A DNA stretch of 64,000 nt from Nannocystis bainbridge (GTDB taxonomy: Bacteria; Myxococcota_A; Polyangia; Nannocystales; Nannocystaceae), in NCBI RefSeq assembly GCF_028368995.1, contig NZ_JAQNDL010000001.1, forward strand, positions 416,001-480,000. Reading direction: 5' to 3'. Below the pieces are notes generated by a model. It did no database searches. It worked only from the letters and a program-made list of their open reading frames with translations, and was not told the DNA's origin. A program made the position numbers and the translations under genes. Shown piece by piece: positions 9,889 to 62,029 of the stretch; the first letter of the stretch is position 1; each line of letters begins with the position of its first letter.

Positions 9889-10066
9889 CGGCCTGGCCAA
9901 TCGGACATGTTCTATCGAGCATGTCGTCAAAGACATTCGCGCGCCGGACCGTGAAGTCACATGCTCCACGGGACATGCCCTTCCGAACATGTCCCACCGA
10001 GCACTCCGCCGCCGCTCGCCTCCGCGCTCACCCTGCCCCATCGAGCATGTCCTCACGGACAGCTCA
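9889..10066. repeat. Array of GGACATGTCC-like decamers, 14-bp period (three sub-arrays)
   Basis: Cores at 9892, 9906, 9920, 9934; 9960, 9974, 9988, 10002; 10032, 10046, 10060. Confidence 0.85.
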
Positions 10067-10765
10067 CGCCTCGGCCGCCGCGAGCGCCGCCGCGAACAGC
10101 TCGGCCAGCGCGGGCTCGTCGGGCAGCTGCTGGGCCAGCGCGGTGCGGATGGCTTCCACGCGCCGGACCAGATGTGCGCGCGGGATGCCGCGGCGGCCCA
10201 GGAACCCCGCCAACCACCGGACATGGTCGGCCAGCACCGCCGGCGAGCCCAGGGCCAGCGCGTCGGCGCAGTACGACACCAGCGTGCCGAGCTCCACCAC
10301 CTGCAGCGGCTCGTCGTCGCCGGCGGCCGCCAGGGCCACCGCGGCGGCCAGGACCAAAGTATCGGCGCGGCGCTGGACCTCGCGCGCGAGCCCGTCCGGG
10401 TACGCCAGCGCGGCCGCCGCGGCGCTCAGCAGGTCGACCGCGGCCTGGCGGTCGGGCCACGGCTCGTCGGCGATCGCGGCCGCCAGACGCTCGAAGTTCT
10501 CGGCCAGGTGCAGCGTGCACATGCCGCGCGCGGTCAGCACTTGCTGCAACCAGCGGGCGTAGTTCTCGAGCACCGCCGGGTCGTCGCCGGCCAGCGCCTG
10601 CTGCAGGTACTGCACGTGGAAGCGACCGTCCTGGCGGCCGTGCCGGTCGGCCCGCTCGCCGAAGCGCTCGCGCCAGAACGGGTCGACGTACATCTCGCCG
10701 AGCACGCGCTCGGTCAGGCGGTCGCTCGCCTCCGCGAGCTGCGCGATCAGGGCCTCGTGGCTCAC
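10064..10765 (-). CDS. Tandem phycobiliprotein-like globin (BBAG/photocobilin bilin-binding-domain-like)
   Basis: GTG at 10765 overlaps the upstream stop (GTGA). RHGRQDGRFHVQYLQQALAGDDPAVLENYARWLQQVLTARG aligns by eye with the phycocyanin-type CxRD..YLRY..YA..AGD..L helix pattern; a second copy reads LVSYCADALALGSPAVLADHVRWLAGFLGRRG. Confidence 0.75.
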   Translation of the reverse strand: MSHEALIAQLAEASDRLTERVLGEMYVDPFWRERFGERADRHGRQDGRFHVQYLQQALAGDDPAVLENYARWLQQVLTARGMCTLHLAENFERLAAAIADEPWPDRQAAVDLLSAAAAALAYPDGLAREVQRRADTLVLAAAVALAAAGDDEPLQVVELGTLVSYCADALALGSPAVLADHVRWLAGFLGRRGIPRAHLVRRVEAIRTALAQQLPDEPALAELFAAALAAAEA

Positions 10766-11415
10766 GCCTCGACCCCCGCCAGCCGCCGCGCCGTCGTCAC
10801 CAGCTCGCCCGCGTCGTCGCCTGCCTGCACCACCCCGAGCTCGCCCGCGAGGCCTGGCGACCAGCGCGTCGCGTGTCCGCCGATGAACACCGGGCGATCG
10901 CTGATCTCGCGCACGCGCGCGACCGCGGCCCGCAGCGCCGGCAAGTTGAAGCTCATCGTCACTGACAGCCCGATCAGGTCCGGCTGCTCCTCGCGCACCA
11001 CCGCCACGAGCTCCTCGGTCGGCACGTTGGCGCCGAGGTAGCGCACTTCGAAGCCCGCGAGCTCGAGCACGTCGGCGACCAGGCGCGCCGGCAGCTCGTG
11101 CAGCTCGCCCTCGACGCACGCCAGCACCACGCGACGATCGAGCGGCGGCTGCGGCGTCGCGCGCTCGAACAGCGCCGCCAGCGACAGGTGCGAGATCGCC
11201 GTCGCCATGTGCTCCTGGGCGATGCTGACGCGGTTGAGCTGCCACAGCCGACCGATCTCGTCCTGCGCCGCGCGGATGACGTGCAACTGCAGCTCGTCGA
11301 CGTGGGCCCCGCCGCCGAGGCCGTCCTCGAGCAGCAGCCGCACCGCCTCGCGTCGATCGCCCGCGAGCTGGGCCCGCAGGTAGCTGTCGCGCAGCTGCGC
11401 CAGCACCGGGGTCAT
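10762..11415 (-). CDS. Stand-alone cobalamin-binding protein, CarH-type photoreceptor module without DNA-binding domain
   Basis: Start MTPVLAQ at 11415 (ATGA overlap). Four-helix cap with W-x9-EH (WQLNRVSIAQEH); Rossmann domain CVEGELHELPARLVADVLELAGFEVRYLGANVP...PDLIGLS...VFIGG. Confidence 0.9.
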   Translation of the reverse strand: MTPVLAQLRDSYLRAQLAGDRREAVRLLLEDGLGGGAHVDELQLHVIRAAQDEIGRLWQLNRVSIAQEHMATAISHLSLAALFERATPQPPLDRRVVLACVEGELHELPARLVADVLELAGFEVRYLGANVPTEELVAVVREEQPDLIGLSVTMSFNLPALRAAVARVREISDRPVFIGGHATRWSPGLAGELGVVQAGDDAGELVTTARRLAGVEA

Positions 11416-12026
11416 GACGCCTCCCGCAACGCCTGCCCGGCCGCTCGCGTGCGCGGGGCCAGCCAGTCGATGAGGCGCGTGAAGGTCGCGCGCGCCGCGA
11501 GCACGGCCTCGGCCTCGGCCTCGGTCGTGCTCACCACCCGCGTGACCACGGCCGCGAAGGCGCGCCAGCGAGCCCCGGTGTCCGGCCCGTAGCCGGCCAG
11601 AAACGCGGTCGCTCGTCCGCGCAGCACGGTCAGCGCCGGCGGCAGCTTGGCGAGGATGTAGCGGCCGCCGAGGGTCGAGCCTTCGAGCACGTAGGCGACC
11701 CCGAGCGCGCTCGCCAGCGAGGCCGTCGAGGGCAGCGCCGCGCATCGGGGCACGGTCGAGGGATCCTCGCCCAGGACGCCCAGATCGGCCACGAGCATGG
11801 GGGATTTGCGCCGTTCGGCGGCCGCGAAGCCGACGGCGAGGAGCCCGGCGTGAGCACCCAGCCGGTCCTCCAGCGGCGCGTGGTAACCGAGCATCGCCGC
11901 CAGGTAGCGGCGGTAGTCGGTCAAGGTCGCGTCGGCGTCGAGGATTCGCACGTGGAGCTCCGCCTCGCGGTGGAGATCTGCAGTGTCGTCCTTGAGCCGG
12001 CGAAGCGGGTCGCGGGCCGCGGTCAC
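11412..12026 (-). CDS. Biliverdin-producing heme oxygenase (BphO/HemO-like)
   Basis: LKDDTADLHREAE (proximal His), YRRYL and YVLEGSTLGG distal helix. Confidence 0.92.
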   Translation of the reverse strand: MTAARDPLRRLKDDTADLHREAELHVRILDADATLTDYRRYLAAMLGYHAPLEDRLGAHAGLLAVGFAAAERRKSPMLVADLGVLGEDPSTVPRCAALPSTASLASALGVAYVLEGSTLGGRYILAKLPPALTVLRGRATAFLAGYGPDTGARWRAFAAVVTRVVSTTEAEAEAVLAARATFTRLIDWLAPRTRAAGQALREAS

Positions 12027-12152
12027 GATCCCACCGTGCTCCGCACGCGCGGCCGGGTCAAGGCGCGGGTGACTTTAATGACAATCTGTCATCGCGGGTC
12101 GACGAGTGCTTGTGTATGAGCCAAACAGGGGAGAGCCTCCGCGCTCAGCCGT

Positions 12153-14147
12153 ATGCAGCCGACCACCTCCTCACTCGAAGCCACGATCGACGCGCTCAGC
12201 CGCGAGCTCGCGCTGATCGTGGCCCCCGACAGCCGGATCGAGTGGGCGGACCCGCGAGCCGAGCGGCACGGCCTGCGCGCCGCGGCCGAGCTGCGCGCGG
12301 CGGTCGTGCCCGGCTGCGAGACCAAGCTCGACGAATTGCTGCGCCAGGCGGCCACCGAGCCGGTGGGCGGCTGGGAGCTCCCGCTCGTGCTCGCGGGCAA
12401 GCCGGTGACGCTGTCGTTCTCGGCGCGCGCGCTCGACGGGCGCATCGCTCTGGTCGGCAATTTCGTCCCGCAGGGCTACGCCGAGGCGATCGGCGAGGCC
12501 GCCCGCGCGGTGCAGGAGATCGTCGACCTCAACCGCCAGCTCGCGCGCCAGAAGACCCGGCTCGAGGAGTCCAACAAGGCCATCCGGGCCCTGCACGCCG
12601 AGCTCGAGCAACACGCCGATCGCCTGCGCTCCTCGGCCGAGGTCAAGAGCCGCCTGGTCGCCGGCGTCAGCCACGAATTCCGCACCCCGCTGCACTCGAT
12701 CCTCGGCCTCTCGCGCCTGCTGCTGGCCGCCTCCGACGGCCCGCTCAACGACGAGCAGCAGACCCAGGTCGCCTTCATCCGCGACTCCGCCGAGGAGCTG
12801 TCGCGCATGATCAACGACATGCTCGACCTCTCGCGGCTCGACGCCGGCAACGCGCCGATCCGGGCCGCTCGCTTCGCCCTGCCCGACTTCTGGGCCGCGC
12901 TGCGCGGGACCATGCGACCGCTGGTGCGCGAGAGCGGCGGGGTCGAGCTGCTGTTCGACCCGGCGCCCGACGTCGGGCTCGAGACCGACCAGGGCAAGCT
13001 GGCCCAGATCCTGCGCAACCTGATCGCCAACGCGCTCAAGTTCACCGAGCGCGGCGCCGTCCGCGTGTCGGCCCGCGTCGACGGCGAGGAGCTGCGCGTG
13101 CTGGTCGAGGACACCGGCATCGGCATCGCCGCCGACGACCAGGCGCGCGTGTTCGAGGAGTTCGTGCAGATCGACGGCGCCCTCCAGCGCGCCGCCACCG
13201 GCACCGGCCTGGGCCTGCCGCTGGCCAAGAAGCTGGCCGAGGCGCTGGGCGGCCGCATCGAGCTCGAGAGCACCCCCGGCGTCGGCTCGACCTTCTGCGT
13301 CACCGTCCCGCTCGAGCACGCCGAGATCGACGCGTTCCGCAAGCTCGAGGTCGCCGCGAGCCAGCCTGACCCGACGCGCGCCCCCGTGCTCGTGGTCGAG
13401 GACGACCGCAGCGCCGTGTTCGTCTACGAGCGCTACCTGTCGATGGCGGGCTTCCAGGTGCTGCCGGCGCGCACCACCGAGGACGCGCGCAAGGTCCTCG
13501 AGCAGGTCCGGCCCTCGGCGATCTTGCTCGACGTCATGCTCGAGCGTGAGGACACCTGGAACTTCCTCGCCGACATCAAGCGCGACCCGGCCACCAACGA
13601 CATCCCGGTGCTGGTGTGCACGGTGATGAACCGCGAGTCGCGGGCGCGGGCGCTCGGCGCCGACGAGTTCTGGCTCAAGCCGGTCGACGAGGACAAGCTG
13701 ATCCGCAAGCTGCAGGTGCTGGCCGCCGGGCGCGGCGCCAAGGTCCTGGTCGTCGACGACGAGCCCGCGGCCCGCTACCTGATCAAGAAATTCCTCGAGG
13801 CGACGCCCTACCAGCTGCTCGAGGCCGCCGACGGCGACACCGGCGTCCAGCTGGCCCTGAGCGAGCGGCCCGACGTCATCTTGCTCGACTTCCTGCTCGA
13901 AAACATGACCGCGTTCGACGTGATCGACCAGCTCAAGGCCGACCCGCGCACGCGACCGATCCCCGTCATCATCGTCACCTCGCATGCGCTCCCCGTAGAG
14001 GACCGACAGCGGCTGGCGGAGAGCACCGAGGCCATCCTTTCCAAGGAGCACCTGTCGCGCGAGCTGGCGATCAATCGCATCCGCGACGCGCTCCGTCACG
14101 CGGGCATCCGTGAGCAGCCGCCCGCCAACGAACGAGGTGGAGCGTGA
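12153..14147 (+). CDS. Hybrid histidine kinase (degenerate PAS-like, coiled coil, HisKA, HATPase, 2 REC)
   Basis: SHEFRTPL H-box, NLIANALKFT, DTGIGI, GTGLGL; two receivers (VVEDD..LLDVML, VVDDE..LLDFLL). Confidence 0.93.
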   Translation: MQPTTSSLEATIDALSRELALIVAPDSRIEWADPRAERHGLRAAAELRAAVVPGCETKLDELLRQAATEPVGGWELPLVLAGKPVTLSFSARALDGRIALVGNFVPQGYAEAIGEAARAVQEIVDLNRQLARQKTRLEESNKAIRALHAELEQHADRLRSSAEVKSRLVAGVSHEFRTPLHSILGLSRLLLAASDGPLNDEQQTQVAFIRDSAEELSRMINDMLDLSRLDAGNAPIRAARFALPDFWAALRGTMRPLVRESGGVELLFDPAPDVGLETDQGKLAQILRNLIANALKFTERGAVRVSARVDGEELRVLVEDTGIGIAADDQARVFEEFVQIDGALQRAATGTGLGLPLAKKLAEALGGRIELESTPGVGSTFCVTVPLEHAEIDAFRKLEVAASQPDPTRAPVLVVEDDRSAVFVYERYLSMAGFQVLPARTTEDARKVLEQVRPSAILLDVMLEREDTWNFLADIKRDPATNDIPVLVCTVMNRESRARALGADEFWLKPVDEDKLIRKLQVLAAGRGAKVLVVDDEPAARYLIKKFLEATPYQLLEAADGDTGVQLALSERPDVILLDFLLENMTAFDVIDQLKADPRTRPIPVIIVTSHALPVEDRQRLAESTEAILSKEHLSRELAINRIRDALRHAGIREQPPANERGGA

Positions 14148-15688
14148 AAGACGCCCGCAAACCTTTGATCCTCAACGTCAACGACCACGTGGCCAACCGC
14201 TACATGGTCTCGAAGATGCTCAAGAACGCCGGCATGCAGGTCATCGAGGCCTCGACCGGCGGCGAGGCGATGGCGCTGGCCCAGGACCCGCAGCAGAAGC
14301 CCGACCTCATCGTCCTCGACATCCGCCTGCCCGACATCGACGGCCTCACGGTGTGCCGCCGGCTCAAGGCCGACCCGCGCACCCGCGACATCAAGATCCT
14401 CCACACCTCCGCCACCTTCGTCACCTCGACCAACCGCGTCGAGGGCGTCGAGGCCGGCGCCGACGGCTACCTCACCCAGCCGTTCGAGCCGCAGGACCTG
14501 ATCGCCACCGTGCGCGCGCTGCTCCGCCTCCACGACGCCGAGGCCGCCCTGGTCGCGCGCAACGGCCTGCTGGTCGAGGCCGACCGGCGCAAGGACGAGT
14601 TCCTGGCCATGCTGGCGCATGAGCTGCGCAACCCGCTGGCCGCGCTGCACATGGGCCTGCCCGTGCTCGACCGCTACCCGCCGCGCGACGAGCTCGAGCA
14701 GCAGACGCGCGACATCATGGGGCGCCAGCTGACCCTCCTCACCCGCCTCGTCGACGACCTGCTCGACGTCTCGCGCGTCACTCGCGGCCGCATCGTCCTC
14801 CACCGCGAGCCGATGGACCTCGCCGCGCTGGTCCGCCGCGTCGTCGAAGTCATGCGCCAGCGGGCCGCGGGGCCGCGCCGGCAGGAGCTCCGCCTCGTGC
14901 TGCCGCCGCAGCCGGTGCCGGTGCTGGCCGACGGCGGGCGCATCGAGCAGGTGCTGACCAACCTGCTCGACAACGCCAGCAAGTACTCGGACGCCGGCAC
15001 CACCATCGAGATCCGCCTCGCGCTCGTCGGCGGCCAGGCCGAGGTCGTCGTGCGCGACCAGGGCATCGGCATCGACGCCGCCACCTTGCCGGCCATCTTC
15101 GACCTGTTCGCCCAGGCCACCCGCTCGCTCGACCGCTCGCACGGCGGGCTCGGCATCGGGCTCACGCTCGCGCGCGGCCTCATCGACCTCCACGGCGGCA
15201 CCATCACCGCCCGCTCCGACGGCCTCGGCCTCGGCACCGAGCTCACGATCCGGCTGCCGCTGCAGGCCGCGCGCGAGCTGGCCCCGGCCCAGCCCAGCGA
15301 GCCCGCCGCCGCCCCCGCCCGCCGCCGGATCCTCGTCGTCGACGACAACGAGGACGGCCGCAAGATGCTGCGCAAGCTGTGCGAGCTGCAGGGCCACGAC
15401 GTCGCCGAGGCGGCCGACGGGCTCGAGGGGGTCCGCTGCGCCCTCGAGGGCCGGCCCGACGTCGCCTTCGTCGACATCGGCCTGCCCGGTATCGACGGCT
15501 ACGAGGTCGCCCGCCGGGTCCGCGCCGGGCTCGACGGCCACTCCCCGGTGCTGATCGCCCTGTCCGGCTACGGCTCGCCCGAGCACCGCGAGCTCGCCCA
15601 CGAGGCCGGCTTCGACGAGCACGTCGTCAAGCCGATCAAGCTCGCCAACCTGCGCCGGATCGTCGGCGCCGCCGCGCCCAAGGCCTGA
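14144..15688 (+). CDS. REC-HisKA-HATPase-REC hybrid histidine kinase
   Basis: GTGA overlap with the upstream kinase; LDIRLPDIDG, AHELRNPL, NLLDNASKY, GGLGIGL, VDIGLPGIDG. Confidence 0.93.
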   Translation: MKDARKPLILNVNDHVANRYMVSKMLKNAGMQVIEASTGGEAMALAQDPQQKPDLIVLDIRLPDIDGLTVCRRLKADPRTRDIKILHTSATFVTSTNRVEGVEAGADGYLTQPFEPQDLIATVRALLRLHDAEAALVARNGLLVEADRRKDEFLAMLAHELRNPLAALHMGLPVLDRYPPRDELEQQTRDIMGRQLTLLTRLVDDLLDVSRVTRGRIVLHREPMDLAALVRRVVEVMRQRAAGPRRQELRLVLPPQPVPVLADGGRIEQVLTNLLDNASKYSDAGTTIEIRLALVGGQAEVVVRDQGIGIDAATLPAIFDLFAQATRSLDRSHGGLGIGLTLARGLIDLHGGTITARSDGLGLGTELTIRLPLQAARELAPAQPSEPAAAPARRRILVVDDNEDGRKMLRKLCELQGHDVAEAADGLEGVRCALEGRPDVAFVDIGLPGIDGYEVARRVRAGLDGHSPVLIALSGYGSPEHRELAHEAGFDEHVVKPIKLANLRRIVGAAAPKA

Positions 15689-15689
15689 A

Positions 15690-15769
15690 CCGCCTGGCCT
15701 CGGGGGCATGTCCCGATGGACATGCCCATGCAGACATGCCCCGGAGAGCATGTCCCGAGGGACCTGTCG
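15690..15769. repeat. GGACATGTCC-like array, 14-bp period, 5-6 units, between convergent genes
   Basis: Cores at 15693, 15707, 15721, 15735, 15749, 15763. Confidence 0.9.
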
Positions 15770-15770
15770 T

Positions 15771-16982
<1,212 letters not shown>

Positions 16983-17197
16983 GCACGGCGCAACCGGCGA
17001 TGGCCGCGACGTCGCGCCGACGCGGCGCCCCGGACACGCGTCCCGACGCGGCGCTCGATCGAGGGATCATGACACTCCAGGATCGCATCCAGGAGCCGCT
17101 GGTGCCGCTGCGGCGACCCCCGCGCGCGGGCGCACTGGCGACGCGGGCGCGGACCTGTGAACGGCGTTGCGTCCCGAGCTACCTTGAGCCCCCGCGT

Positions 17198-18659: not shown

Positions 18660-18697
18660 ACGGATGTCTCGGAGGACATGTCTTCCAGGACATGCGC
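18660..18697. repeat. GGACATGTCC-like array, 14-bp period, 3 units
   Basis: Cores at 18663, 18677, 18691; lies between convergent genes. Confidence 0.75.
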
Positions 18698-23327: not shown

Positions 23328-23393
23328 CGGCATGGCCTTCAAGACATGTACTTTTGTACATTTTCTGAAGGACATGCCTCGACGGCCATGTCG
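23328..23393. repeat. GGACATGTCC-like array, 14-bp period, 5 units
   Basis: Cores at 23331, 23345, 23359, 23373, 23387. Confidence 0.85.
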
Positions 23394-24283: not shown

Positions 24284-24340
24284 CGGAATGTCCGAAGGGA
24301 CATGTCCGAAAGTTTCGGACATGTCCCCTCGGACACACGC
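24284..24340. repeat. Long palindrome built from two GGACATGTCC pairs
   Basis: tgtccgaagggacatgtccgaaa-g-tttcggacatgtcccctcggaca (24289-24335): 23-bp arms with one mismatch, between convergent genes. Confidence 0.9.

Positions 24341-39539: not shown

Positions 39540-39540
<1 letters not shown>
39456..39540 (+). promoter_or_regulatory. Putative RBS-sequestering hairpin (translational attenuator) upstream of the ABC-F gene
   Basis: cctgaatc (39468-75) pairs with gattcagg (39523-30); tgaag with cttca; inner cgcccgc with gcgggcg. The stem covers AGGAG and the A of the ATG. Confidence 0.55.
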
Positions 39541-41042
<1,502 letters not shown>

Positions 41043-41794: not shown

Positions 41795-41818
41795 TGACAT
41801 GTCCCCGAGGACATGTGG
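41795..41818. repeat. GGACATGTCC-like pair, 14-bp period
   Basis: CATG cores at 41798 and 41812. Confidence 0.65.
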
Positions 41819-42116: not shown

Positions 42117-43619
42117 ATGGACAGCTTCGAAGCCAGGGCGTCCGCCGACCTCGGACCCCATGTCCCCCAGGACATGTCCGTCGGGACATTGATCGCCGGC
42201 CGCTACCGGATCCTCGCCGGCCTCGGCGAGGGCGGCATGGGTGCGGTGTACCTGGCCGAGCACCTCGAGGTCGGCCATCGCGTCGCGGTCAAGGTGCTGC
42301 ACGCCGAGCCGAGCGCGCGGGCCTCGATCGCCCGCCGCTTCCGCGTCGACGCCTGCAGGGCCGGCTCGCTCGGGGACCCGCACATCGTCGAGGTGTTCGA
42401 CGCCGGCGTGCTGCTGGACGGGCGCCTGTTCCTGGTGATGGCCTACCTCGAGGGCCGCGACCTGGCGCAGGAGCTCGAGGAGGTGCTGGTCTTCGACGCC
42501 GAGCGCGCGTGCTCGCTGATGCGGCAGGTCACGCTGGGCCTGGCGACCGCCCACGCGGCGGGCATCGTGCACTGCGCGCTCAAGCCGAGCAGCGTGATGC
42601 TGGCGGCGCTGCCCGAGGGCGAGGTCGTCAAGCTGCTCGACTTCGGGCTCGCGGCCAAGGTGGTGCTGCACGCCGGCGCGGGCGAGCACCCGTCGCACGA
42701 GGCCGGCGCCCACTCGAGCTCGGCCGATTACATGGCGCCCGAGCAGGCCGCGAGCGTCGCGGCGACCCCGGCCGTGGATGTCTACGCCGTCGGGGTGATG
42801 CTCTACGAGCTGCTGTCAGGCTCGCTGCCGTTCACCGCCCGCCACGCGTTCGAGCTGCTGAATTTCAAGCTGCTGCACGCGGCGCCGTCGATCGACGCCC
42901 GCCGCCCCGGCCTGCCGCCGCGGCTCGTGCGGCTGATCGCCGACTGCCTCAGCATCGACCCCGCGGCCCGCCCCGCCGACGGCGCGGCGCTGGTGCCCCG
43001 CCTCGACGCGGTGCTCGCCGACCTGCGGAACCCGGCGCCGCGGCCCGCCGAGGGCGCGACCGCGCCGCAGCCCGCGGTCCGGCGCCGGCGATGGCCGCTC
43101 GCGCTGGCGGCCGGCCTGTTGCTGACGGCCGGCGTGGCGTCGGTGGAGCTCGCGCCGGAGCCCGCGGCCGCGATCGAGCCGCCGCCACCCGCGCCGACGC
43201 CCGCAGCGCCGGCGCCGACGATCGAGCCGCCGCCGCCCGCCCTGCCCGCGCCGACGGTCGTCCCGCTCGCGCCCCCGCAGCCCGCCCTCGAGCTGCCGCG
43301 AACCGAGCCGGGCCCGAAGGTCGCCCGCCGGCCCGCGCCCACGACCGACACCGACGCCGACGAGACGCACCTGAGCCCTCGCTGTCAGCGCATCCGGGCC
43401 AAGGCGACCGAGGCGCGCCGGACCCAGCGCTGGGGCGTGCTGCGCGACCAGAGCCGCCACCACGAGTGCTGGGCCTCCGAGCCCGAGGTCCGCAAGCTGC
43501 AGGCCAAGGCGGCGATGGAGCTGGGCGACTTCTCCGGCTGCGTGACCTTCGGCGCCGGCCTGCGCGACCCGGAGGTCGAGCAGTGGCTCAAGCTGTGCCG
43601 CCTGCGCGCGGAGGATTGA
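42117..43619 (+). CDS. Ser/Thr pseudokinase with TM helix and Pro-rich/Cys extracellular region
   Basis: GEGGMGAVY, VAVK, DFG and YMAPEQ retained, but the catalytic loop reads HCALKPSS instead of HRDLKPxN. Confidence 0.85.
   Translation: MDSFEARASADLGPHVPQDMSVGTLIAGRYRILAGLGEGGMGAVYLAEHLEVGHRVAVKVLHAEPSARASIARRFRVDACRAGSLGDPHIVEVFDAGVLLDGRLFLVMAYLEGRDLAQELEEVLVFDAERACSLMRQVTLGLATAHAAGIVHCALKPSSVMLAALPEGEVVKLLDFGLAAKVVLHAGAGEHPSHEAGAHSSSADYMAPEQAASVAATPAVDVYAVGVMLYELLSGSLPFTARHAFELLNFKLLHAAPSIDARRPGLPPRLVRLIADCLSIDPAARPADGAALVPRLDAVLADLRNPAPRPAEGATAPQPAVRRRRWPLALAAGLLLTAGVASVELAPEPAAAIEPPPPAPTPAAPAPTIEPPPPALPAPTVVPLAPPQPALELPRTEPGPKVARRPAPTTDTDADETHLSPRCQRIRAKATEARRTQRWGVLRDQSRHHECWASEPEVRKLQAKAAMELGDFSGCVTFGAGLRDPEVEQWLKLCRLRAED
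42156..42193. repeat. GGACATGTCC-like array, 3 units, at the 5' end of the pseudokinase gene
   Basis: Cores at 42159, 42173, 42187. Confidence 0.75.
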
Positions 43620-43672: not shown

Positions 43673-43696
43673 GTGAATGACCCCGAGGACATGTCC
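43673..43696. repeat. GGACATGTCC-like pair between convergent genes
   Basis: Cores at 43676 and 43690; the second is a perfect decamer. Confidence 0.6.
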
Positions 43697-44884: not shown

Positions 44885-44960
44885 GGACATGTCGCCGGTG
44901 TGCGTGCGGGTCGGCGCACATGGGACGGCCGCGCTCGAACATGTCCTTTGGGACATCCAC
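44885..44960. repeat. GGACATGTCC-like units in divergent intergenic region
   Basis: Core at 44888 and a 14-bp pair at 44940/44954. Confidence 0.65.
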
Positions 44961-45174
44961 GATCCATCGCGCGCATCACCGCCGCCGGCATGGCCGATCG
45001 GACAGGTTTACCCATCCCTCTGACCCGGGCCCCGGCGACCTGCCCTCATTTCGGCCGCTCGGCCCGAGCCCGGCGTGTTCGCGCGCGCGCCCGGGCTCCG
45101 CATCTGCGGACCCGCATTTTCTCTGCGATCTTCGCTGCGACCTGGGCCCGAAGGTGTCGTCCTTCCTCCGCGAG

Positions 45175-47326: not shown

Positions 47327-47424
47327 GGACAGGTCCTCGAGGACATGTCCTCGCGGACCGGTCCTCGAAGACATGCCCCGAGGGTCATGTCCCTCGAAGC
47401 ATGCCCCTCGGGACATGCCCGTCG
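47327..47424. repeat. GGACATGTCC-like array, 7 contiguous units of 14 bp
   Basis: ggacaggtcctcga ggacatgtcctcgc ggaccggtcctcga agacatgccccgag ggtcatgtccctcg aagcatgcccctcg ggacatgcccgtcg. Confidence 0.95.
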
Positions 47425-51944: not shown

Positions 51945-53455
51945 ATGAGCCGAACCGTCCCCACAGCCTTCTCGCAGCCGCGCGCGCCGACCGGGATCTC
52001 CGGCCTCGACGACATCCTCGGCGGGGGTCTCCCGCGGGATCACCTGTACCTCTTCGAGGGGGCGCCGGGCTCGGGAAAGACCACTTTCGGCCTGCAGTTC
52101 CTGCTCGAAGGCCGGGACCGCGGCGAGGTCGGGCTCTACATCACCCTGTCCGAGACACGCAGCGAGCTCGAGATCGTCGCCGCCTCGCATGGCTGGTCGC
52201 TCGACGGCATCCGCGTGTTCGAGCTGCTCTCGCCCGACCATCTGAGCCCCGACGCGGCGCAGACGATCCTCCACCCGTCCGAGGTCGAGCTCGGGGAGAC
52301 CGTCGACGGCGTGCTCCGGGCGATCGAGCGGGAGCAGCCGACGCGGGTCGTGTTCGACAGCCTGTCCGAGATGCGGATGCTGGCCCAAGATCCGCTGCGC
52401 TATCGCCGGCAGATCCTCGCGCTCAAGCACATCTTCGCCCGCAAGCAGTGCACCGTCATCATGCTCGACGACCGGACCAGCGCGCAGCAGGACTTGCAGC
52501 TGCACAGCATCGCCCACGGCGTCCTCGGCCTCGAGCAGCACACCCACCAGTACGGGCCCGAGCGCCGCTGCCTGCGGGTGAGCAAGCTGCGGGGCCTCAA
52601 GTATCGCGGCGGCGATCACGACTACGAGATCCGCACCGGCGGCATCGAGGTCTACCCGCGGCTCGTGGCCTCGGAGCACCGCGCCGGCGTCGAGCACACC
52701 ATGGTCTCGAGCGGCAACCGGGGTCTCGACAGCCTCCTCGGCGGCGGCCTCAGCCGCGGGACGAGCGTCCTGTTCAGCGGGCCGGCCGGCGCCGGCAAGA
52801 CCACCACCGCGCTCGCCTGCGTCCAGGCGGCCCTCGAGCGCGGCGAGCGGTGCGCCTTCTATCTCTTCGACGAGAGCCTGTCGATCATGCTGAAGCGGGC
52901 GACGGCGCTGGGCATCGAAGTCGGCAAGTACATCGAGTCCGGGACGCTCGAGCTGGTCCAGCTCGACCCGGCGGAGATGTCGGCCGGGGAGTTCGCCCAC
53001 CGGGTGCGCGAGGCCGTCGAGGCCGGCGCGCAGACGGTGGTCATCGACAGCCTCAACGCTTACTTGCACGCCATGCCGGGCAGCCGCTTCCTGGTGTTGC
53101 AGATGCACGAGCTGCTCGCCTACCTCAACCAGAAGGGGGTCATCACGCTCCTCATCCTGGGCCAGCACGGCGTGCTCGGCGAGGGCCGCACGGACGTCGA
53201 CCTCAGTTATCTCAGCGATTCGATGCTGCTGTTCCGCTACTTCGAGGCGCGCGGGCGGCTGCTCAAGGCGATGTCTGTCACCAAGAGCCGCACCAACCCC
53301 CACGAGTCGACGATCCGCGAGTTCCGGCTGACGGCCCGCGGCATCGAGATCGGCGACATCTTGCTCGACTTCCAGGGCGTGCTCGGCGGCGTCCCCCACT
53401 ACGACGGCGTGCGTCCGCTGCTGGCCGACCGCGACGGCAAGGGCGCGGCCAAGGG

Positions 53456-53459
<4 letters not shown>
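51945..53459 (+). CDS. KaiC-like tandem RecA-superfamily ATPase
   Basis: TGISGLDDILGGGLP, GAPGSGKT, VVFDSL, KLRG; second domain SSGNRGLDSLLGGG, GPAGAGKT, FDES, VIDSL, KSR..H..TIREF. Confidence 0.92.
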
Positions 53460-55132
<1,673 letters not shown>

Positions 55133-55175
55133 ACGCCGCGGCGTGAGGCGCCGGCGCTCGCGCGATTGTCCGAGA

Positions 55176-55385
55176 CGCGACTCCGAGGCACGGACCGGCG
55201 CGCGCGACCGTCAATGCCGCGACTCCACGGCACGGACCGGCGCGCGCGACCATCAATGCCGCGACTCCGCAACACAAACAATCGCGCGCGCGGCCGTCAA
55301 TGCCGCGACTCCGCGGCCCGGACAGTCGCGCGCGCCACTGTCAGTGCCGCGACTCCGCGGCGGTGACCGGCGCGCGCGGCCGCGT
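55176..55385. repeat. Degenerate tandem repeat, 42-44 bp unit, about 5 copies
   Basis: cgcgactcc at 55176, 55218, 55260, 55304, 55348; unit approximately tgccgcgactccgcggcacggaccggcgcgcgcgaccgtcaa. Confidence 0.88.
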
Positions 55386-55970
55386 CGACCGGCGCGTGTA
55401 CTCGGCGATGTGCTCGATGCCCGCCACCGCGGCCCGGAACGCTCGCGCCAGCGGCCGGTGCGTCGCCGCCTCGAGCGCCCGCTCCGGATGCGCCGCGAAC
55501 CACTCGAGCGCGTGCTCGGCCTCGACCACCAGCGCCTGCCGCCGCTCGAGCCAGGCGACGCACCAGTCGGCGAGTTCGACCGCGCCGTCGCGGCGGGCCA
55601 CCTGCTCGAACAGCGTCACCAGATCGATCCCGTGGCGCACGCCCAGCAGCGTGCCGCGATACGAGCGCTCGAGGCTGAGGAACAGGTCCGCGACCTGATT
55701 GCGGACCACCGAGAACGCCGAGCCCACCGCGCGGCCGCCCGTGCTGACCGGCAGCTCGTGGCGCTCGATCAGCCCCGGCAGCTCCGCCAGCGCCGACTCG
55801 GCGTGCGCGGCGATCGCTCGGAAGATCCGCGCCGGCGGGACATCGCCCAGGCGCTCCGCTTCGATGATGGGGTGACGCTGCGCCGATTGCTCGGTCTGGA
55901 ACAGCTCACGCGAAAGATTGCCCAGCCAGGCGCGAACGTCCGTCGCCTGCTCCTCGGAAACCTGGTTCAT
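55341..55970 (-). CDS. Hypothetical helical protein (possibly ferritin-like)
   Basis: MNQVSE start; ELFQTEQSAQRH, AHAE, RHGIDLV give E/H spacing typical of four-helix bundles. Confidence 0.65.
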   Translation of the reverse strand: MNQVSEEQATDVRAWLGNLSRELFQTEQSAQRHPIIEAERLGDVPPARIFRAIAAHAESALAELPGLIERHELPVSTGGRAVGSAFSVVRNQVADLFLSLERSYRGTLLGVRHGIDLVTLFEQVARRDGAVELADWCVAWLERRQALVVEAEHALEWFAAHPERALEAATHRPLARAFRAAVAGIEHIAEYTRRSTRPRAPVTAAESRH

Positions 55971-56201
55971 GCGCCGAACTGTGGCGGGTATGTACGGACT
56001 GGCAATCGCCCGCCCCGCCGACGACCCCCGTGGGGCCCGCGGCGGGGGAATTTGCCGTTCCATTCGCGGCTCGCCGCAGGTATGCGCCGATAGCGCTATC
56101 CCGATCCGAATCCATTGGGTTTCCAGCCGGGCTCGCTCGCCCCGCGGTCCTGTCCATGACCTGGCATTCTCTCGCGCAGTCATTGCCCACAGCGCCGGCG
56201 G

Positions 56202-57389
56202 TCAGCCGGCCCCGCTCGCCGTCGGCATCGTGAACGTGAAGCAGGTCGACTCCTCGTCCGAGTGCACGTCGAGCCGCCCCCCGTGCGACCGCGCGATCTC
56301 GGCGGCGATGTAGAGCCCGAGCCCGAGGCCCTCTCCCGGCCGCTTGCGGGCCCCGCGACGGAACGGCTGAAACAGCCGCACCTGCTCGTCGTCCGGGATC
56401 GCCGGCCCGCGATTGGTCACCGACAGCACGAACCTCGCCTCGTCGGCGAACGCCAGCACATCGACCGGTTGGTCGGGGGCCCCGTGGACCAGCGCGTTCT
56501 TCAGCAGGTTCGCCAGCAGCTGGGCCAGGCGCCGGCTGTCACACATCACCGGCACGGGCACCTCGATGCGGGCCTGGACCGACCGCTCGGCGTGCGCGCT
56601 CTGCAGCTCGGCGATGACCTGGTACAGCTCGGCTCGCAGCTGCCCGCTCGCGCGGCGCTCGACCGCCATCTCGCCGCCCATGCGCCCGCGGGTGAAGTCG
56701 AGGACATCGTCGATCCGCGCCGCGACCTGCCCGGCGCTGCGGCCGATCCGCTCGACCACCTGCATCGACTCCGGGGCCAGCGCCATCCGCCGCAGCAGCT
56801 CGGCGCCCGTCACGATCGACGCCAGCGGCGTGCGAACGTCGTGGCCGAGCACCGCGATGAATTGCTCGCGCAGCTCGGCGGTCTCGCGCTCGTGCTGCAC
56901 CGGCGTGCGGGCCCCGGCGTGCCGCTTCTCGCCGTCGATCTGCAGCGAGATGAGCTGGGCGAACATCGACATGGTTCGCAGGATCGCCGGATCCGACACC
57001 GTGCGGGGCAGCGGATCGATGGCGCACAGGCTGCCGAAATAGCTGCCGTCGGCCCGGTAGAGCGGGAACGACAGGTAGCTCTCGATGTTGTAAAGCTTCG
57101 GTGTCGGGTGATCGCAATATTCAGGGTCGAGGGAGGCGTGATTGATGACCACCGGCGCCTGCTGGGTCCGTACCTTGCGACACAGCGTCGTCGTCACGTC
57201 GAGCGGGTCGCCGGGCTTGATGCCGACTTTGATGCGATCGAGCACCGCGCAGGCGGCCCACGAGTCCTCGGTCACGCGCGCGACGCAGACGAAGCGCATC
57301 CCCGTGACGTCGGCGATGACGCGCAAGATCGGCGCCACCATGGGGATGGCCGCCACGGCGGCGATATCCGCCGCCAGCGTGGCGTCCAT
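56202..57389 (-). CDS. GAF-domain sensor histidine kinase
   Basis: TGMRFVCVARV..YNIESY..FGSLCAID GAF; GHDVRTPL, NLLKNALVHG, GLGLGLYI. Confidence 0.92.
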   Translation of the reverse strand: MDATLAADIAAVAAIPMVAPILRVIADVTGMRFVCVARVTEDSWAACAVLDRIKVGIKPGDPLDVTTTLCRKVRTQQAPVVINHASLDPEYCDHPTPKLYNIESYLSFPLYRADGSYFGSLCAIDPLPRTVSDPAILRTMSMFAQLISLQIDGEKRHAGARTPVQHERETAELREQFIAVLGHDVRTPLASIVTGAELLRRMALAPESMQVVERIGRSAGQVAARIDDVLDFTRGRMGGEMAVERRASGQLRAELYQVIAELQSAHAERSVQARIEVPVPVMCDSRRLAQLLANLLKNALVHGAPDQPVDVLAFADEARFVLSVTNRGPAIPDDEQVRLFQPFRRGARKRPGEGLGLGLYIAAEIARSHGGRLDVHSDEESTCFTFTMPTASGAG

Positions 57390-57725
57390 GCTGTCGCTAC
57401 GAGGGGACTCGAATGGAGCGTTCACCAGTCGAGAACACTAACAGAGGCCGCGCAAGCCCGCGCTGCGGCGCCTCGGCCGCACCAGCGCACAGCCCGCCGT
57501 ACGCGCCCCGGGAGCCCGCGCCGGTCCATCGACGAACATCGTTTCGACCGGCGTCGACGCTGTCATCGTCCCGCCGACAGCCATCATTCTCGCGCACACC
57601 CGGGTCGAGCCCGCGGCGACGTGATCTCGAGCGCAGCCGATCGCGTCGGTCCCCGGACCGCGGTGACTGCCACCCGCTCCGCGCCCCCCTGCGGCGACCC
57701 CGAGTCAGTCACTGGCGCAATGACT

Positions 57726-59177
57726 TCACCGCGCGGGAGCCTTGCGGATCGCCAGGCTCAGCGGCACTGCCACCAGCGCCACGATCGTCGCCACCAGGTA
57801 CACATCGTTGATGCCGGCCACCAGCGACAGCTCGGCGATCCTCCCGGGCTCCGTCACCCCTTGCCCCGCCAGCGACTCGGCCGCCCGGGCCGAGAACAGC
57901 GCCAGCAGCGACGTGAAGATGGCGATCGAGAACGCCCCGAACACGTTGCGCAGCCAGTTGCTGATCGACGACGCGTGGCCGCTGAGCTCGCGCGGGATCT
58001 CCTCCATCCCCGCGTTGCTGGCCGGCATCATCGCCAGCGAGATGCCCACGTTGCGCACCAGCATCCACAGCAGCACGTAGGTCTGCGACACCTCGGGCGT
58101 CAGGCGGCTCAGGGCGAACGTGCCGCCCGCGATCATCAGCACCCCGGCCGTCATCAGCGCGCGCGGACCGATCCGGCCGTACACGCGCCCGACCACCGGC
58201 ATCAGCAGCGCCATCGCCAGCGACGCCGGCAGCAGGATCAGCCCGGTCGCCAGCGGCGTCACCCCCTGCACCGTCTGCAGGAACACCGGCACCAGGAACG
58301 CGCCCGAGTACAGGCTGATCGTGATGATGGACGCCACGATCAGCGTCACCAGATAGCGGCGATTCGTCAGCACCCGCAGGTCGAGCAGCGGGTGGCGCGT
58401 GCGCAGCTCGCGGACCACGAACCCCACCAGCGACAGCGTCCCGAGCAGCAGCAGCCCCACGGTGCTGCCATTCGTCCAGCCCCACTCGCGCCCCTGGCTC
58501 AGCGCGATCAGCAGCGCCAGCGTGCCCGTGATCACCGTGACGAGCCCCGGCAGGTCGAACGCCTGCGGCGCCTGCAGGCGGTAGTACGGGATGGTCCGGT
58601 TGGCCAGCGCCACCGCGAGCACGCCGAGCGGCACATTGATGAAGAACAGCCAGCGCCAGTCGGCCAGCGTGATCAGCCAGCCGGCGAACGTCGGCCCGAA
58701 CGCCGGCGCCAGGCTGGCCGAAAGGCTCCACAGGCTGGCCGCCAGCGCCTGCCGTTCGCGCGGCAAAAGCTGGTAGATGAGCGTCATCGTCACCGGCATG
58801 ATGGCGCCGCAGAACGCCCCCTGGACGAAGCGAAACGCCACCAGCGAGCGCGTGTCCCAGGCCATCCCGCACAGCACCGAAGTCAGCGTGAAGCCGACCA
58901 GGCTCGCCACGTACAGCCGCTTGAAGCTGAAGCGCCCGCCGAGGTAGCCGGTCAGCGGCGCGCTGGTCCCCATCGCCAGCATGAAGCCGGTCAGCGTCCA
59001 CTGCAGCAGCGACAGCTCGGCGCCGAAGTAGCGCTGCAGCTCGGGGATGGCGATCGTGATCGTGCTCGAGCTGAGCACCGACATGAACGACCCGACGAAC
59101 AGGGCGAACATGAACGGCCAGAAGCGGGTCACGCGCGGCTCTTCGGGCGGCGGCTGCATCGGGCGGGCCGTCCCCAT
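57726..59177 (-). CDS. DHA2 (EmrB/QacA) MFS efflux transporter
   Basis: About 14 TM; LAPAFGPTFAGWL..WRWLFFINVPLG, PLLDLRV. Confidence 0.92.
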   Translation of the reverse strand: MGTARPMQPPPEEPRVTRFWPFMFALFVGSFMSVLSSSTITIAIPELQRYFGAELSLLQWTLTGFMLAMGTSAPLTGYLGGRFSFKRLYVASLVGFTLTSVLCGMAWDTRSLVAFRFVQGAFCGAIMPVTMTLIYQLLPRERQALAASLWSLSASLAPAFGPTFAGWLITLADWRWLFFINVPLGVLAVALANRTIPYYRLQAPQAFDLPGLVTVITGTLALLIALSQGREWGWTNGSTVGLLLLGTLSLVGFVVRELRTRHPLLDLRVLTNRRYLVTLIVASIITISLYSGAFLVPVFLQTVQGVTPLATGLILLPASLAMALLMPVVGRVYGRIGPRALMTAGVLMIAGGTFALSRLTPEVSQTYVLLWMLVRNVGISLAMMPASNAGMEEIPRELSGHASSISNWLRNVFGAFSIAIFTSLLALFSARAAESLAGQGVTEPGRIAELSLVAGINDVYLVATIVALVAVPLSLAIRKAPAR

Positions 59178-59347
59178 ACCAGCACAGCCGCCCCGCCGTC
59201 ACGCGCCCGCGTCGTGCGTCACGCGCACGCGCAGTCACGCCCGCGGGCCTCGTCCGCGTGAGGCCCGCCGCACGCCTCACGGTCGCGCAGCCCGAGAGGC
59301 CGCACGCTGCGCTCGCGCCCGCTCGTGCGGACCGGCCGCGGCTCACC

Positions 59348-60022
59348 TCAGAACTGGCACAGCGTCTCGGCTTCGTCGGACATGTCCGCGCAATCCGCCT
59401 CGCCGTCGCAGATGAACGTCCCCGGCACGACATCGCCGGATTCGCAGGTGAAGGGCGGCGAGTCCTCGCATTGCCCCTCGATCGCTACCGTGGCGGCCGG
59501 GAACTGCTTGCCGCAGGCACTGTACGCGCCGGAGAACGCGCCGGAGCAGTCCCACTCGGGCTGGGTGTCGTATTGCTCGCACGTGACGGGCGCCATGCAC
59601 TCGTGATAGGCGAGCTCGGCGGCCGTCCGGCAATCCACGTACGCCGCGTGCATCGGCTCCGCCGCCTCGAGCTCGCACAGGCAGGCGACATACCCGTCAC
59701 TGTCGGGGTCGCGCCCTTCCTCGCAGGTCGCCACGTCGGGGTCGAACCCGAACTCGACGGCGCACGGACAGTATTGCTCGACGCCAGCGCGCGCGGCCGC
59801 AGCGTAGCGATCACAGGCCCGCGCCATCGCCCCGCCGGTGGTGCTCGTGGAGCCGTCGGTGGTCGGCGCGTCGGCGGTGGTGCCGTCGCTGCCGCCCGCG
59901 CTCGTCGTCGTCGTCGAATCGCCCGGGCCCTCCGTGGTGGGCTCCTGCTTCGTCGAACCGGGACAGGCCGCGACGCCCAGGCATGTCGCCACAGCGCAAA
60001 TCAATCCATACGACCGGGTCAT
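59348..60022 (-). CDS. Cys-rich lipoprotein with C-terminal LDL-receptor class A module
   Basis: VAAC lipobox; FTCESGDVVPGTFICDGEADCADMSDE. Confidence 0.8.
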   Translation of the reverse strand: MTRSYGLICAVATCLGVAACPGSTKQEPTTEGPGDSTTTTSAGGSDGTTADAPTTDGSTSTTGGAMARACDRYAAAARAGVEQYCPCAVEFGFDPDVATCEEGRDPDSDGYVACLCELEAAEPMHAAYVDCRTAAELAYHECMAPVTCEQYDTQPEWDCSGAFSGAYSACGKQFPAATVAIEGQCEDSPPFTCESGDVVPGTFICDGEADCADMSDEAETLCQF

Positions 60023-60059
60023 GGCGCCATCGTAGCTCGAGGCTCGCGGCCCCGGCACG

Positions 60060-60623
60060 CTAGCGCTCCGCGACGGTCGGCGTGATGACCAGCCGATCGA
60101 GGCTCCCCGCGATCGTCTCGATCGGCAGCGGCTCCGGCTGGCGCAACCACCAGCCGATGATCTCGATCGTCGCCGAGGTCGCGAACGTGACCCGCAGATC
60201 GATCGGGCTGTCGCCCGTCGCCGGCGCCCCGAAATCCGCCGCCAGGGCGCGCGCCTGGCCCACGAACTGCTCGCGCAGCCGCGGCGCCGCCCCGCCCGTC
60301 AGCAGCGCCCGCCACAGCGCCCGCCGCCGCGACACGAACTCGAACAGCGCGACGCAGGCGCGGCCCGTGTTCTCGGCCGAAAACAGCGGCATCGCGGCCC
60401 CCAGCAGCCCGGCGATCTCGTCGGCCGCGAGGTCGTCGAGCAGCGCCTCCTTGTCCGGGTAGTGGCGGAAGAAGGTCGCGTAGCCGACCCCCGCCTCGGC
60501 CGCCAGCGCGCGCACCGTGATGGCCTCGAACGGCTCGCGTTCGAGCAGCGCGAGCATCGCGCGCAGCAGCTTGGCGCGGGTGCGCACCTGCCGGGCATCG
60601 GTTGCTGAGGCGTCGGAGACCAT
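60060..60623 (-). CDS. TetR/AcrR family regulator
   Basis: ITVRALAAEAGVGYATFFRHYPDKEALL helix-turn-helix. Confidence 0.93.
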   Translation of the reverse strand: MVSDASATDARQVRTRAKLLRAMLALLEREPFEAITVRALAAEAGVGYATFFRHYPDKEALLDDLAADEIAGLLGAAMPLFSAENTGRACVALFEFVSRRRALWRALLTGGAAPRLREQFVGQARALAADFGAPATGDSPIDLRVTFATSATIEIIGWWLRQPEPLPIETIAGSLDRLVITPTVAER

Positions 60624-60646
60624 TTATGATACAGTGTGTCTCATAA
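60624..60646. promoter_or_regulatory. Probable TetR operator (imperfect palindrome)
   Basis: ttatgatacagtgtgtctcataa, an AT-rich dyad in the 47-bp gap between divergent tetR and P450 genes. Confidence 0.75.
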
Positions 60647-60670
60647 CCCGAGACGGGGAGCTGGCTGGCG

Positions 60671-61846
60671 ATGAGCGTGGATTCTGCTGCGAAATGTCCC
60701 TTCAATTCCACCCGCAACGACAGCAAGAGCGCGGCCGTCGTCACCCGGCGGATGAAGATCGAGAGCGGCGCCGAGCATATCCGCGCCTTTGAGCGGGCGC
60801 GCGAGGTCCTGCTCGACCGCGACCTGCTGCAGGGCGGCGCCGGCGCGGAGTTCGTCGACACCAGCGACCCGGACAAGGCCCCGGTGTTCTTCCTCGACGG
60901 CGCGCCGCACCGGGACAAGCGCACCAGCATCGCCCGCTTCTTCACGCCCAAGGCGATCACCAGCCGCTACCACGCGATCATCGAGCGCGAGACGGCGCGG
61001 CTGCTCGGGCAGCTCCGGCGCGACGGCCGGGCCCAGCTCGACGTCATCAGCTTCGAGCTCACGGTCGCGGTCGCGGCCAACATCGTCGGGCTCACCGACA
61101 GCGACATGCCGAAGATGGCGCGCCGGCTCTCGATGATGCTGTCCGCCGGCTGGCACCACCGCATCAACCTGCTCGGCAGGGTCGCCGCCGGCCTGCGCAA
61201 GGGCCGGGCCATGCTCGGCTTCTACGTCCACGACATCACCCCTGCCCTGCGGTCCCGTCGCAAGGCGCCAAAGGACGACCTCCTCTCCGAGCTGCTGGCC
61301 CGGGGCGCCACGCAGCGGGCCATCCTCACCGAGTGCATGACCTACGCCGCCGCCGGCATGGTGACCACGCGCGAGTTCATCGTCATGTGCGCCTGGCACC
61401 TGTTCGATCGGCCGGAGCTGCGCGCCGACTTCCTCGCCGGCGACGAGGCGCGTCAGTTCGCCATCCTCAACGAGATCCTCCGCCTCGAGCCGATCGCCTC
61501 GCTGCTCTACCGCCGCGACGGCGACGCCGCCGGCGCGGACAGGCACAAGTATGCGCTCGACCTGCGGGCGATCCACGAGGACGAGGCCGCCGTTGGCCCA
61601 TGCCCGCGCACCCTCGATCCCGACCGGGCCCAGCGCATGAAGACCAACGGCGCCTACCTCAGCTTCGGCGCCGGCGCCCACCACTGCCCCGGCAAGCAGG
61701 TCGCGCTCCACGAGACCCGCATGTTCCTCGACGCCCTGCTGCGCGTCCCCGGCGTCCGCCTCGCCCGCGCCCCGGACGTCGGCTGGTCAGAGATGCTGCT
61801 CAGCTACGAGCTGCGCGACGCGGTCGTGACCTGCGACCCGGCGTGA
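60671..61846 (+). CDS. Cytochrome P450
   Basis: FFLDGAPH..R, AAAGMVTT (I helix), EILR (ExxR), FGAGAHHCPG (heme Cys). Confidence 0.93.
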   Translation: MSVDSAAKCPFNSTRNDSKSAAVVTRRMKIESGAEHIRAFERAREVLLDRDLLQGGAGAEFVDTSDPDKAPVFFLDGAPHRDKRTSIARFFTPKAITSRYHAIIERETARLLGQLRRDGRAQLDVISFELTVAVAANIVGLTDSDMPKMARRLSMMLSAGWHHRINLLGRVAAGLRKGRAMLGFYVHDITPALRSRRKAPKDDLLSELLARGATQRAILTECMTYAAAGMVTTREFIVMCAWHLFDRPELRADFLAGDEARQFAILNEILRLEPIASLLYRRDGDAAGADRHKYALDLRAIHEDEAAVGPCPRTLDPDRAQRMKTNGAYLSFGAGAHHCPGKQVALHETRMFLDALLRVPGVRLARAPDVGWSEMLLSYELRDAVVTCDPA

Positions 61847-61854
61847 GCCGGGCG

Positions 61855-62029
61855 TGTCATGTCCCCCGGGACATGTCGATCGCGCATCATCCTTCGGAGA
61901 GCGACTCGCGTGTCTCGGGCTTTACATGTCCCTCGGGACATGTCGAGGACGACGTCCTTCGAAATTCGACCCTCGCTACCCGAAATTAACCAGTCTCTCG
62001 AGACATGGCCTGTCGCTTCGGACAGGTCG
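61855..62029. repeat. GGACATGTCC-like pairs, 14-bp period, between convergent genes
   Basis: Cores at 61858/61872, 61925/61939 and 62009/62023. Confidence 0.8.

Follow-up and report, generated by a model that had tools for sequence, protein, structure and literature searches.

A 14-bp-phased palindromic DNA element of three Nannocystaceae genera, concentrated behind genes and with a possible role at transcript ends

A 64,000-nucleotide stretch of the Nannocystis bainbridge genome (assembly GCF_028368995.1, contig NZ_JAQNDL010000001.1, positions 416,001 to 480,000; the window) carries dispersed palindromic arrays at a 14-bp period. An earlier inspection of the letters alone (the sequence-only reading) had described them as phased, CATG-centred decamers with variable 4-nt spacers, and all of the loci it claimed are present. 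Their gene contexts also hold by our own codon-model gene calls, which cover ~81% of the genome and include some wrong labels: six loci (15690, 18660, 24284, 43673, 47327 and 61855) lie between convergent genes, two (9889 and 23328) are in tandem gaps just past a stop codon, and four (2942, 41795, 42156 and 44885) are divergent. Some details were revised: the 2942 locus is one unit, the in-phase unit of the 44885 locus is at 44942-44955, the two units at 24284 exist and are out of phase with each other, and the catalogue had overlooked sites inside genes at 6570, 39731 and 40650. Taking as a unit the palindrome TGTCC-N4-GGACA, we list the loci below.

2947-2960: a single exact TGTCC-N4-GGACA unit in a divergent gap
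6570-6621: a weak phased array inside the gene at 4724-7168 (minus strand)
9894-10061: two phased arrays (9903-9940 and 9957-9994) and a unit at 10048-10061, at most 170 bp past the stop of the gene at 10064-10765 (minus strand)
15704-15769: an array of five decamers (four units) between convergent genes; four relatives have an array at this position too, with spacers that differ
18660-18697: two abutting units in a convergent gap
23328-23393: a five-decamer array in a tandem gap, 12 bp past a stop, which folds as one long hairpin with its outer spacers paired
24284-24335: two exact units, mutually out of phase, in a convergent gap
39731-39754: a unit inside the ABC-type ATPase gene at 39540-41042 (plus strand)
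40650-40673: an exact unit inside the same ATPase gene
41795-41818: an exact unit in a divergent gap
42156-42193: two abutting exact units whose junction provides the start codon predicted for a Ser/Thr kinase gene (42174, plus strand)
43673-43696: a unit in a convergent gap
44937-45004: an exact unit (44942-44955) and a one-mismatch unit (44991-45004) in a divergent gap
47327-47420: an array of seven decamers (six units) in a convergent gap, 3 bp past a stop, with a folding z of -5.6 against shuffles
61855-62024: three units (61860, 61927 and 62011) within a convergent gap

The repeating unit is 14 bases long and two-fold symmetric, and it occurs in 1,987 exact copies in this Nannocystis assembly (G000; 11.05 Mb in five contigs, ~71% GC), compared with 0-16 copies for each of 12 other spacer lengths from 0 to 12. 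The window holds 13 TGTYC-N4-GRACA units (mean 0.03 and maximum 1 in 100 approximate dinucleotide shuffles) and 19 CATG pairs 14 bp apart (shuffle mean 0.63, maximum 3), in confirmation of an enrichment over shuffled sequence. Across the genome there are 3736 CATG pairs at a distance of 14 bp, 2073 at 28 bp and 1586 at 42 bp, the three peaks predicted by the sequence-only reading, and a further 751 at 56 bp, vs. 72-83 at each of 13, 16 and 17 bp; genome-wide spacing counts for GATC, GTAC, TGCA, TCGA and CTAG have no peak of this kind. A weight-matrix scan of the genome called 3,027 phased arrays with a total length of 124 kb, and strong adjacent matches number 5,311 at period 14 vs. 19-92 at six other periods between 11 and 17.

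The dyad had been placed on CATG, and here the earlier description needs correcting: the centre of the unit is the four variable bases instead. The flanking CA and TG are both absent in 888 of the 1,987 exact units, and 33 of 956 exact decamers have three or more mismatches to the half-site on both sides. Since units lacking CA/TG are common and decamers lacking half-sites are rare, the decamer is formed where two units abut. Single-base variants indicate that G2 and its mirror are nearly fixed and that T3 and C5 are tolerant, with position 3 taking any base; the spacers are 47-55% A+T in this high-GC genome. By arithmetic only, a 14-bp period rotates successive sites by ~120 degrees. A search of the window against Rfam returned no match and the spacers are 4 bp long, in agreement with the earlier statement that the arrays are unlike CRISPR.

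Exact units are densest in convergent gaps (1,832 per Mb), followed by tandem gaps (705), divergent gaps (217) and genes (88), vs. 0-13 per Mb for control patterns with 3, 5 or 7 spacer bases. Long tandem gaps carry ~4 sites per kb within 75 bp past the stop and 0.5-1 beyond 125 bp. Among convergent gaps of 50-199 bp, 305 of 457 have a site, as do 205 of the 1,192 tandem gaps measuring 25-199 bp and 5 of the 291 divergent gaps shorter than 200 bp; 200 kb of short divergent gaps contain 35 exact units, and site density is depleted near gene starts. Within genes, sites are slightly commoner in P/S/T/E-rich stretches, and 65 of the 148 kinase genes in the genome have at least one. All five contigs carry sites, and 20-kb windows poor in them have lower GC and look foreign (Spearman 0.45). 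Even spacing was ruled out (coefficient of variation of cluster spacing, 1.15), as was gap filling, given that coding sites do not fill the stretches between intergenic sites. Because the sites cover five contigs and the genome has a separate parS-like cluster, a segregation factor, one of the roles suggested earlier, is unlikely. That cluster, six parS-like palindromes at C1:4343336-4345333, likely marks the origin region.

The motif is selected within genes, even against codon preference. Genes contain 661 exact units vs. 6-13 under synonymous resampling, and a pairwise comparison with a relative (G007) found 27 of 36 coding sites unchanged, with four-fold A/T positions kept at 24 of 28 places within sites vs. 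745 of 1,972 elsewhere (38%). Between genes, of 74 orthologous gaps in which a unit occurs, 55 carry a unit in G000 and G007 alike. Identity to G007 is 96.6% for CATG, 77.8% for the arms and 56.8% for the spacers, with four-fold codon sites at 84.1%. Beside the 38% conservation of four-fold A/T positions, the spacer value makes spacer divergence look neutral; hypermutated or enzyme-randomised spacers were ruled out, as 57% identity fits neutral drift at ~52% A+T. Neighbouring spacers agree at 1.30 of 4 bases vs. 1.09 by chance, which indicates that short duplications help arrays grow. The sequence-only reading took variable spacers in a constant phase as an argument against simple slippage repeats; slippage does contribute.

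Almost every copy is unique: 5,253 of 5,367 adjacent-unit 24-mers are distinct, and 148 of the 3,027 arrays resemble another (at least 45 bp at 85% identity or more), the largest group, of six, coming from repeated contig ends. Near-identical segments of 3.5-12 kb are common to the ends of C1 and C2 and to the start of C2 and the end of C5; they are probably assembly overlaps and duplicate a few arrays. New sites come from base substitution and from short tandem duplications, and selection retains them. Unique copies and substitution into genes argue that the element is not a REP or a MITE, and they do not support the earlier suggestion of a new miniature repeat element.

The arrays are a real, selected and apparently undescribed element of three Nannocystaceae genera, myxobacteria of soil and sludge. 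In an order-level panel of 73 genomes, the unit is enriched in 23, comprising 11 of 11 genomes of genus g1 (140-2,415 units), 5 of 5 of g2 (133-260) and 7 of 7 of g4 (94-731), where reversed-pattern controls give 0-20. The other 50 genomes (14 genera) have 1-41 units each, and 300 further genomes sampled across the phylum reach a maximum of 56. Abundant double decamers are confined to part of the genus, and 39 of 43 database records with double units have Nannocystis or Nannocystaceae in the title. The sites sampled in g2 and g4 are found past genes, inside them and close to starts; in g4, 17 of 33 follow a stop and 6 of 33 precede a start only. Most of 67 metagenome loci are high-GC with homologues in G000, and viral contigs and a phage collection gave no motif match. 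Near-identical 14-bp tandem repeats of this pattern also occur on metagenome contigs of 43-57% GC with little or no homology to G000 (L309, L331, L340, L346, L347, L357, L362, L365 and L370); these are probably unrelated simple repeats.

The termination factor Rho (PF07497) had no match in any of the order's 73 genomes, the same search being positive in 9 of 14 control genomes, and TIGR00767 matches above cut-off were found in 0 of 8 genomes of the family vs. 29 of 61 of the class. In several further families of the class, the Rho search returned nothing beyond weak ATPase matches. In the portion of PMC11347177 available, only Haliangium among 12 Myxococcota is given as Rho-less, and a literature search on Nannocyst- with Rho or transcription termination retrieved no paper. 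A simple test for a hairpin followed by a U-tract was positive at 222 of 4,127 gene ends (~5%). The absence of Rho matches is wider than the motif, and it is a setting for the element rather than proof of its role. Regular-expression look-ups for rho, HU, SMC, ParB and competence genes proved unreliable and serve as leads only.

The fixed spacer, the selection within genes and the 35 units in short divergent gaps argue for recognition on DNA. We propose that TGTCC-N4-GGACA is a lineage-specific double-stranded DNA site for a putative dimer, probably of winged-helix type, and that dimers would tile at exactly 14 bp with CATG common to neighbouring footprints. Sites are densest just past stops, where transcripts also appear to be selected for hairpin folding, and their likeliest job may be to help end or delimit transcripts, by a roadblock or pause together with the 3' hairpin, chiefly between convergent genes and in a family presumed to lack Rho. 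This explanation, a double-stranded site on which a dimer tiles, supplemented by a 3' hairpin and acting at transcript ends, is the likeliest of those considered, and we would credit and doubt it in about equal measure. It keeps much of the dimer-site lattice proposed by the sequence-only reading, for which the 4-bp spacer, the 14-bp phase and the selection in genes and promoter gaps all speak, with the dyad moved and with the addition of an RNA-pairing signal at gene ends that the protein-site interpretation had overlooked.

Several observations weigh against this proposal. In-gene sites number in the hundreds, which speaks against a hard roadblock, and site presence has no link to a weak codon-based proxy for expression. 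U-tract terminators are about as frequent at convergent ends with a site (53 of 940) as at those without (39 of 762). Fourteen Rho-less genera do without the motif, and life without Rho therefore does not depend on it. The hairpin effect is small, real arrays gaining 1.2-1.7 kcal/mol in folding over chimeric ones. As for a winged-helix reader of the PadR or RTP type, PadR (PF03551) had no match in G000 or in the single-contig genome G001, searches with AphA_like and RTP hit spurious frames only, and the exact Bacillus subtilis PadR 18-mer is not enriched (65 copies vs. 94-245 for controls at other spacings). Isolated units, moreover, have the outer C in 50% of cases vs. a background of ~36%, and this weakness suggests that part of the PadR likeness comes from tiling. 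A wider version of the proposal, tentative and rather unlikely in our estimation, is that a clade of Rho-less Nannocystaceae has genome-wide, DNA-encoded termination, in which a PadR/RTP-fold dimer would polymerise on 14-bp-tiled sites behind genes and block or slow polymerase from either side, helped by a 3' hairpin. If true, this would give bacteria a general means of termination in addition to Rho and U-tract terminators.

The sites may alternatively be RNA elements, that is, sequence-conserved stem-loop terminators or 3'-end protectors read by an RNA-binding factor, comparable to the mycobacterial TRIT motif. Arm-pairing covariation does exist behind genes and not inside them, and its effect is modest: compensatory double changes exceed expectation 1.86-fold in convergent gaps and 1.68-fold in tandem gaps (other double changes, 1.03 and 1.15), vs. 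0.83-fold in genes and 0.63-fold in short divergent gaps, the last from few sites. Flanks are complementary with an odds ratio of 7.4 in convergent gaps, a value partly confounded by array membership, and 2.0 in tandem gaps, and only in convergent gaps do spacers i and i+2 show reverse complementarity (1.30 vs. 1.08 +/- 0.03; tandem, 1.11). Arrays fold well (z of -2.6 to -5.9), and wobble-compatible variants are ~1.6 times commoner on the sense strand once replication strand is averaged out, a remainder that transcription-linked mutation could also cause. The failure to find Rho fits such an element, as does TRIT itself, a Rho-independent terminator motif that the accessible text of its report describes as palindromic, bidirectional and near stops (PMC3152330). 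Against it stand a loop fixed at four bases whose sequence is free and diverges about neutrally, the strong enrichment of in-gene and divergent-gap sites that have no pairing signal, and the lack of any U-tract or T run found downstream of arrays. The G/T asymmetry, furthermore, is for the most part tied to the strand of replication (the sense-antisense difference is -4.3 kcal/mol in leading and +2.0 in lagging genes). We consider an RNA element unlikely as the primary explanation.

Three further explanations were weighed against the DNA-site proposal. The sites could be a chromosome-wide self mark or nucleoid-organising site, akin to uptake sequences or HIP1, that accumulates where constraint is low and is put to hairpin use only secondarily; their presence on every contig, their writing into genes with a slight preference for P/S/T/E-rich stretches, their scarcity in foreign-looking windows and the positions kept between species (55 of 74 gaps) all fit. 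Density, however, drops 4- to 8-fold over the ~150 bp next to the stop, long gaps included, and remains low in the middle of divergent gaps, neither of which low constraint alone predicts; with irregular cluster spacing and no gap filling by coding sites, a self mark is distinctly unlikely. The expanded regulon of an ordinary PadR-fold repressor, begun in promoters, would account for the operator geometry, for padR promoters in Kribbella and for several g2 and g4 sites at most 150 bp from a start. It is quite improbable with PadR not found in G000 or G001, with sites depleted near starts in G000, and with g4 sites following stops more often than they precede starts only. A selfish repeat of the REP, BIME or MITE kind, mobilised by a transposase and of no host function, would explain a REP-like placement past stops and between convergent genes and the large differences in copy number within the clade. 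This last idea is already largely refuted and retains very little probability: the Y1 (RAYT) transposase PF01797 has no match in G000 (the assembly is 90% complete and the search was positive in 6 of 14 control genomes), copies are unique, and those in coding sequence are in-frame substitutions on which selection acts. Ends of 2,214 non-coding arrays have GTAG at 1.4% (background 1.7%) and CGTC at 5.9% (background 11.6%), bearing out the earlier remark that the GTAG form of REPs is lacking.

The case for a PadR-type reader draws on site geometry and on Kribbella promoters, the nearest known counterparts being the operators of PadR-family proteins (B. subtilis PadR, LmrR) and the structurally similar RTP-Ter system. 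In the parts of the reports available to us, PadR operators have ATGT/ACAT halves ~8-10 nt apart (PMC3506622), and the B. subtilis PadR site is the 18-mer C-N-T-G-N-A-N6-T-N-C-A-N-G, with CATG at 14 bp (PMC5728393). Inverted ATGT/ACAT halves, a 14-bp recurrence of CATG and a tolerance at the base following TG are all features of the element as well. PadR dimers can adjoin (PMC5728393, PMC3506622; both in excerpt), four dimers extending over two stacked 28-bp duplexes in the B. subtilis PadR crystal (PMC5728393, same portion), and RTP places two dimers on the two half-sites of Ter, according to the section available of PMC10331603. Unlike the B. subtilis 18-mer, the element has C rather than A at position 6, a version with 4,076 copies, and unlike PadR systems it has thousands of sites, mostly behind genes, instead of one promoter. 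No PadR or RTP gene was found to pair with it. PF03551 scores above cut-off in 20 of the 73 genomes with no tie to the motif, and no PadR match lies near the 67 metagenome loci. PadR and the replication terminator RTP have a common fold without sequence likeness, so a divergent family of this type could be missed by such searches. Two Kribbella records (L058:270-400 and L083:270-400) carry the array of the element, ~five half-site pairs in 14-bp phase, in a divergent promoter between short-chain dehydrogenase-like and PadR genes, reaching the PadR gene start; this array is possibly a cooperative PadR operator.

Other candidate readers were rejected on their distribution or sites. BlaI/MecI occurs in 68 of 73 genomes irrespective of the motif, a MerR-like single-copy gene in 67 and a winged-helix family resembling nucleoid proteins in 71. 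The last (L127:1327-1875, at C3:1107326 in G000) has a helical N-terminal part, a basic linker and a C-terminal winged helix, with 1-17 matches per genome in those 71 and weak Pfam matches only; its architecture is reminiscent of H-NS/Rok-type silencers. A stand-alone Fis-like family is expanded in g1, g2 and g4 (3-15 matches vs. 0-4), and was set aside given that its recognition helix is the same in motif-negative genera and that a different palindrome lies upstream. A single-sequence model of it contributed nothing further. These proteins (L128:957-1172, C1:1913456 in G000) are single-copy in each of five motif-negative genomes that were inspected and multi-copy in g1, g2 and g4, and many Fis-like genes have a TGRTCY-N5-RGAYCA-like palindrome ~25 bp upstream. 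LexA or a paralogue was also rejected, G000 having one LexA with no unit upstream. Among 204 genes from iterated G000 seeds, an incomplete set, none was a clear self-regulated helix-turn-helix gene.

LexA boxes such as CTGT-N8-ACAG in Escherichia coli and TGTTC-N4-GAACA in Verrucomicrobia have the TGT-N8-ACA geometry of the element; in addition to the unit-free lexA upstream region, none of the sites sampled in g2 and g4 lies at an SOS gene. DNA uptake sequences and HIP1 are over-represented words in coding and non-coding DNA, scarce in foreign islands and found as hairpins at gene ends. The element is likewise a genome-wide word in and between genes that is rare in foreign-looking islands and folds into hairpins behind genes, and differs from them as an interrupted palindrome with exact 14-bp tiling. 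TRIT, the closest analogue in function, in the available part of its description (PMC3152330) resembles it as a genus-level, sequence-conserved palindrome near stop codons with no reader named, and is defined there as an RNA structure with 147 copies centred near -8 of the stop. Unlike TRIT, the element has thousands of copies, mostly 0-75 bp downstream of stops, with phased tiling, sites deep in genes and a Rho-less host, a contrast between descriptions. REP, BIME and REPIN elements, which come closest in placement, are, in the text available (PMC3733652), abundant palindromes past stops and between convergent genes, in clusters and sometimes in genes. The present element differs in having no GTAG/CGTC tag, RAYT or master copy, in its fixed, free 4-bp spacer and in its origin by substitution. 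That same text makes no mention of Myxococc-, Plesiocystis, Sorangium, Haliangium or Deltaproteobacteria. The retron msDNA repeats of Nannocystis exedens were rejected as a match, at only a few copies according to the accessible part of a review and without a comparison of sequences. No description of TGTCC-N4-GGACA was found in the literature covered, most subscription journals and supplements lying outside the search.

About 1% of an 11-Mb genome is devoted to one word that looks like a protein site, in a family apparently without Rho and with few U-tract terminators, which raises the question of how its transcripts end. New here are the enrichment in three genera, 23 of the 73 genomes of the order, and the finding of Rho in none of the 73. 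The element also offers a handle on the question: a defined pull-down bait, a clean presence/absence pattern (23 vs. 50 genomes) and cultured strains for mapping 3' ends.

Three minor observations remain. No equivalent palindrome at gene ends was seen in four motif-negative genera sampled at 200 kb each; the motif-negative genome G076 has an intergenic GGAGG-N12-CCTCC repeat, with 6 copies in sampled gene-end DNA (L233-L242). A 1,061-aa frame with a ScpA-like N-terminus (C3:1270033-1273218 in G000) contains nine units. At C1:1377114-1377311, G000 encodes a 65-aa protein that, by eye, has the look of a bacterial histone.

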